A program made the position numbers and the translations under genes. Below, in pieces: positions 41,213 through 41,668 of a DNA stretch of 64,000 bases. The first letter of the stretch is position 1; every line of letters starts with the position of its first letter. This DNA is from Escherichia phage vB_EcoM-G28. Under the pieces are notes generated by a model. It searched no databases, was not told the origin of the DNA, and saw only the letters and a list, made by a program, of their open reading frames with translations. The DNA lies in the sequence record NC_054916.1. One strand, given 5' to 3'.

Positions 41213-41668
41213 TTATTTTAAATCATCTGCCCAATCGAGTTTAAGAGGCTCTTTATATTCACGATCTAATACGACCGGAATTTGTACATCACCGCTAAAT
41301 GATAAGGGCCCAACATTATAAGACAATGTTATATGCGGTGTGTAATCATCAAAATCATGTGTAGCACCTAGTGCCCGCGCATACATATGTCGACAGCGCA
41401 GATATTCAGAATCTAGCACAAGTACAAGAGTCGATCCATCTTGTGTTTTCCATACTTCTAAATGTCCAGAAGAAGCTACTTCAAAACTTCCGCTTGATGG
41501 AACATACGGAACATTTACTCTTGAATAACATATGGTCGAATGAATTTTTTCTCTAGGAACTGGATTAGGAACACGTAAAGAGCGCTGGAGTTCTTCCAGC
41601 GCATCAAGTGTTAATTCTGAAAACTTAGCTGCTACATAAAGACCCGTTGAAAAGTCTTTAAATTCCAT
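41213..41668 (-). CDS. 57B: gp57B, 2H-phosphoesterase-fold protein (anti-CBASS Acb1 family)
   Basis: 151 aa directly downstream of 57A; two H-x-[ST] motifs (IHSTI, PHITL) typical of 2H phosphoesterases. Confidence 0.75.

Follow-up and report, generated by a model that had tools for sequence, protein, structure and literature searches.

Gene 57B of phage T4 was found by activity-guided fractionation to encode an enzyme that degrades 3'3'-cGAMP, and its product was named Acb1 (Hobbs et al. 2022, PMC9117128). Deletion of acb1 abolishes the cGAMP-degrading activity of T4 lysates, and the deleted phage is restricted by CBASS operons (PMC9117128). In a transposon screen of T4, 57B was dispensable on K-12 while insertions in it were depleted on a CBASS-expressing host (bioRxiv 10.1101/2025.11.20.689424). 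A transcriptome atlas places T4 57B expression mainly in the middle/late class. The T4 enzyme adopts a 2H phosphoesterase fold, and its residues 145-152 form a C-terminal lid; its catalytic tetrad, H44/T46/H113/T115, is metal-independent and cuts 3' of adenosine by way of a cyclic phosphate intermediate, while Y12, W74, F107 and W147 stack the bases and E141 reads adenine (PMC9117128). The double mutant H44A/H113A is inactive (PMC9117128), and a lid-deletion result supports the function of the lid (bioRxiv 10.1101/2025.08.21.671373). Recent work, bioRxiv 10.1101/2025.08.21.671373 included, shows that Acb1 comes at a cost: it also destroys 2'3'-c-di-AMP and cA3, which triggers the Panoptes guard, and phages escape this by inactivating acb1.

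More divergent viral 2H phosphodiesterases, among them PDE-9 and the protein of PDB entries 9Q2G and 9Q2Y, resemble Acb1 in their 2H fold and catalytic histidines. PDE-9 degrades 3'3'-cGAMP, as T4 Acb1 does, but its lid is N-terminal, not C-terminal, and it spares 2'3'-c-di-AMP; because of this last property it does not trigger Panoptes, unlike T4 Acb1 (bioRxiv 10.1101/2025.08.21.671373). The LigT / 2'-5' RNA ligase family (PF13563) belongs to the same 2H phosphoesterase superfamily and likewise bears two HxT motifs, but differs in substrate and biological role.

The DNA analyzed here, called the window below, is a 64,000-nucleotide stretch of Escherichia phage vB_EcoM-G28 (NC_054916.1). In its ORF list, an ORF of 151 amino acids occupies exactly the interval given for 57B in Table 1, directly downstream of the 80-aa ORF of 57A, with whose TAA stop its ATG shares one base, and upstream of a 96-aa ORF, that of ipI. 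The genes follow one another as they do in T4 (NC_000866), in the order 3-1-57A-57B-ipI-trna.4, and the 1.9-kb stretch around 57B is 98.8% identical to T4, where the annotated features are 3, 1, 57A, 57B and ipI. From its sequence, this ORF is recognizable as the already known acb1 gene of a T-even (Tequatrovirus) phage. Positions 41213-41668 almost certainly represent acb1, and the predicted product is a metal-independent 2H phosphodiesterase acting against CBASS signals.

Table 1. Features of the 57B/acb1 locus and its neighbors, in window coordinates (residue numbers are those of the window's protein unless marked T4)
Feature	Position	Strand	Details and basis
57B/acb1 CDS	41213..41668	-	151 codons plus TAA stop at 41213-41215; ORF list, T4 identity, Pfam, PDB
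First catalytic HxT	41534..41542	-	CAT TCG ACC = H43-S44-T45 within IHSTI; equals T4 H44/T46
Second catalytic HxT	41327..41335	-	CAT ATA ACA = H112-I113-T114 within PHITL; equals T4 H113/T115
C-terminal lid segment	41216..41239	-	Residues 144-151 (T4 145-152); includes base-stacking W146 (T4 W147)
57A/57B junction TAATG	41666..41670	-	57A stop overlaps 57B start; TGATG in T4; DNA alignment
57A (tail-fiber chaperone)	41668..41910	-	Overlaps 57B start; ORF list, T4 annotation
Gene 1 (dNMP kinase)	41910..42635	-	Upstream of 57A; ORF list, T4 annotation
TATAAATA octamer (T4 late-promoter consensus)	42266-42273	-	Inside gene 1; pattern search
Promoter-like TTTACA-17-TACTAT	41171..41199	-	Directly after 57B stop, before ipI; identical in T4; scan
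ipI (internal head protein I)	40850..41140	-	Downstream neighbor; ORF list, T4 annotation

The identification is carried by homology. The protein is identical at 151/151 positions to residues 2-152 of T4 gp57B (NP_049750.1), and residue numbers given here for the window's protein are therefore those of T4 minus one, the annotated first Met of T4 being absent. It matches the Pfam family Acb1 (PF23474) with E=2.6e-60 and a score of 202.7 bits (cut-off 27), residues 8-149 covering the whole profile (1-144 of 144). The first-pass annotation had placed the protein in the Acb1 family, on the ground that T4 57B corresponds to Acb1; this correspondence is correct according to Hobbs et al. 2022 (PMC9117128), and the family assignment is borne out by these two comparisons. 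A further match (E=4e-62) is to the crystallized Acb1 of Erwinia phage FBB1 (PDB 7T26/7T27), with both HxT motifs in register. The two proteins align unambiguously over residues 8-148 and share the tetrad, the stacking aromatics and a W-containing lid, although the FBB1 sequence is diverged and its first motif reads H-T-T where the window's protein has H-S-T. From this close similarity to a solved Acb1, the 57B product would adopt a 2H phosphoesterase fold. The 165-aa protein of 9Q2G/9Q2Y, deposited as 'Anti-CBASS protein Acb1', is a distant relative (E=0.004). NCBIfam had no model matching the 57B protein. Among 50,697 phage records queried by tblastn, 1,469 contain the 57B protein; in 497 of these, with T6 and many T-even phages of Escherichia, Shigella and Yersinia among them, the identity is at least 99%.

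Two H-x-[ST] motifs, IHSTI and PHITL, had been reported by the first-pass annotation for the protein downstream of 57A. Both are present, and translation with position mapping puts their histidines, H43 and H112, 69 residues apart. Both coincide with the published catalytic tetrad, with the refinement that the conserved form is HxT specifically. The motif pair is by itself weak evidence for Acb1: when the protein is shuffled with its composition preserved, two or more H-x-[ST] arise in 16.6% of cases and two or more H-x-T in 2.1%. Because the pair is not strongly significant in these shuffles, the case for Acb1 rests on homology, and the homology (the Pfam Acb1 match, PDB 7T26 and the identity with T4 57B) lifts the motif observation far above chance. 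In the alignment with T4 Acb1, which had been proposed as a check, and with FBB1 Acb1 (7T26), H43, T45, H112 and T114 fall on the catalytic tetrad. All nine published functional residues of Acb1 are kept (Y11, H43, T45, W73, F106, H112, T114, E140 and W146), namely the tetrad, the stacking aromatics Y11/W73/F106/W146 and the adenine-reading E140, and nothing is missing from the C-terminus, which runs to residue 151.

Substrates, mechanism and phenotype of the 57B product are carried over from the published experiments on the identical T4 protein. On that analogy, this small enzyme would bind, in a U-shaped pocket shut by the C-terminal lid, the cyclic di- and trinucleotides that CBASS cyclases make. 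The bases would be stacked on Y11, W73, F106 and W146, and one adenine would be read through E140. Acid-base catalysis by the H43/T45/H112/T114 tetrad would then cut the 3'-5' bond 3' of adenosine, via a 2',3'-cyclic phosphate intermediate. The linear product would be unable to activate CBASS effectors, and the phage would thereby escape abortive infection.

A different function is implied by some of the names in use for this family: the product might be a 2'-5' RNA ligase or a cyclic phosphodiesterase of the LigT type whose substrates are RNA ends, in tRNA or RNA repair, and not a nuclease of immune signals. The match to PHROG 755 (E=5e-68) carries the older label 'RNA ligase', a name also used in RefSeq, and 57B lies close to a phage tRNA cluster. 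The only Pfam signal besides Acb1 is, moreover, to 2_5_RNA_ligase2 (PF13563), but this is a sub-threshold match of residues 80-122 (E=0.11; 13 bits, cut-off 27), and by the gathering score the protein falls outside the LigT / 2'-5' RNA ligase family. The label is an old transfer from fold and motif, whereas the match to the Acb1 family itself reaches 202.7 bits. The identical T4 protein, moreover, is the one recovered by fractionation as cGAMP-degrading, and its deletion both abolishes the lysate activity and sensitizes the phage to CBASS (PMC9117128); in the Acb1 literature examined, no RNA-ligase activity is reported for it. With the LigT match below threshold and cyclic-nucleotide cleavage published for an identical protein, we reject the RNA ligase function, to which we give only a very slight chance, and retain the assignment to Acb1.

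Naming in the public records is uneven. RefSeq and PHROG 755 call the 57B product 'RNA ligase', most GenBank records call it hypothetical, and the names 'anti-CBASS protein Acb1' and 'cyclic phosphodiesterase' appear in only a few records of T4-like phages.

At the nucleotide level, the acb1 gene of the window differs from that of T4 by seven substitutions within the 456 nt that the two share. All seven are third-position and synonymous (0/7 alter an amino acid), a pattern consistent with purifying selection on what would be an active gene. The other difference lies at the junction with 57A, where a G-to-A change relative to T4 at 41670 replaces TGA by TAA as the stop of 57A and, with it, the first of two consecutive T4 ATGs by ATA, such that the start region reads ATA ATG GAA here and ATG ATG GAA in T4. 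Because the first ATG is ATA, translation must start from the second Met codon, and the protein is 151 aa long against the 152 of NP_049750.1, where one extra Met is annotated; the older T4 record X03016 already had 57B as 151 aa. The same 60-nt junction was found in our phage collection in T2, wV7, ECML-134, phiD1 and others; in IMG/VR, scans found the two variants of the junction in 2 and 0 contigs, too few to be informative. Judged by this distribution, TAATG is a natural form of the junction that is common among these phages, and no sign of damage to the gene. That stop and start share one base points to translational coupling of 57B to 57A, and we infer that this phage expresses 57B, probably through such coupling at TAATG.

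It is conceivable, though very improbable, that loss of the first ATG shifts the level or timing of Acb1 relative to T4, and so tunes CBASS evasion against the triggering of Panoptes. The stronger proposal, that removal of the T4-annotated start (ATA ATG GAA for ATG ATG GAA) leaves this copy of 57B poorly expressed or silent, is close to negligible and was rejected, since the second ATG remains in place and shares a base with the stop of 57A, an arrangement standard for translational coupling, T4 57B had itself been annotated as 151 aa in X03016, the junction is common to T2 and other phages, and a run of purely synonymous substitutions is not expected of a silent gene.

The transcriptional setting of acb1 also resembles that of T4, with the same flanking genes and the same promoter-like element after the stop. 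A scan found no terminator-like site between 57A and 57B, and the two genes are probably co-transcribed. An octamer of the T4 late-promoter consensus, TATAAATA, lies inside gene 1 and could explain late transcription of 57A and 57B, although in the pattern search such octamers are no more numerous across the window than expected by chance. The 57B transcription unit is bounded downstream by the promoter-like site that directly follows the 57B stop. This site has a counterpart: a 21-nt sequence, ATTTCACAAAGTTGTTTACAT, occurs twice on the minus strand, directly after 57B (41195-41215) and directly after ipI (40826-40846), and each copy runs into a TTTACA-17-TACTAT element with a TG extension (41199..41171 and 40830..40802). 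The twin sites look like paired T4 early-type promoters, one for ipI and the other for the trna.4/tRNA unit. Between the hexamers upstream of ipI, at 41166-41193, there is also a perfect 9-bp inverted repeat, GATGAGGTA ... TACCTCATC, identical in T4.

Further downstream on the minus strand, an eight-gene tRNA cluster is found at 38458-39815, as in T4. An ORF of 221 aa (38537-39202), between tRNA-Arg and the next tRNA, sits where T4 has the homing endonuclease segB. A tRNA with a CAU anticodon (39244-39315) is called Met by ARAGORN, where the T4 record has tRNA-Ile. Over the 24 kb from 30000 to 54000, the closest phage records (Yersinia phage fPS-2 and Escherichia phages vB_EcoM_F1, FL08 and vB_EcoM_112) are only about 96-97% identical, with the matches broken into several segments, which identifies the source of the window as a mosaic T-even (Tequatrovirus) phage and not T4 itself.

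Recognition of this gene as acb1 adds no new biology, but is useful for annotation, as many records say 'RNA ligase' or 'hypothetical protein'. For the phage itself, the first-pass annotation had concluded that cyclic-oligonucleotide immunity is neutralized, and sequence identity with the tested T4 enzyme supports this: because the two proteins are the same, the phage of the window would neutralize CBASS as T4 does. It is expected to withstand those CBASS systems whose signals are cyclic di- and trinucleotides containing adenine. Recent papers indicate that a phage with Acb1 should also be vulnerable to Panoptes, which fires when its decoy nucleotides are destroyed.
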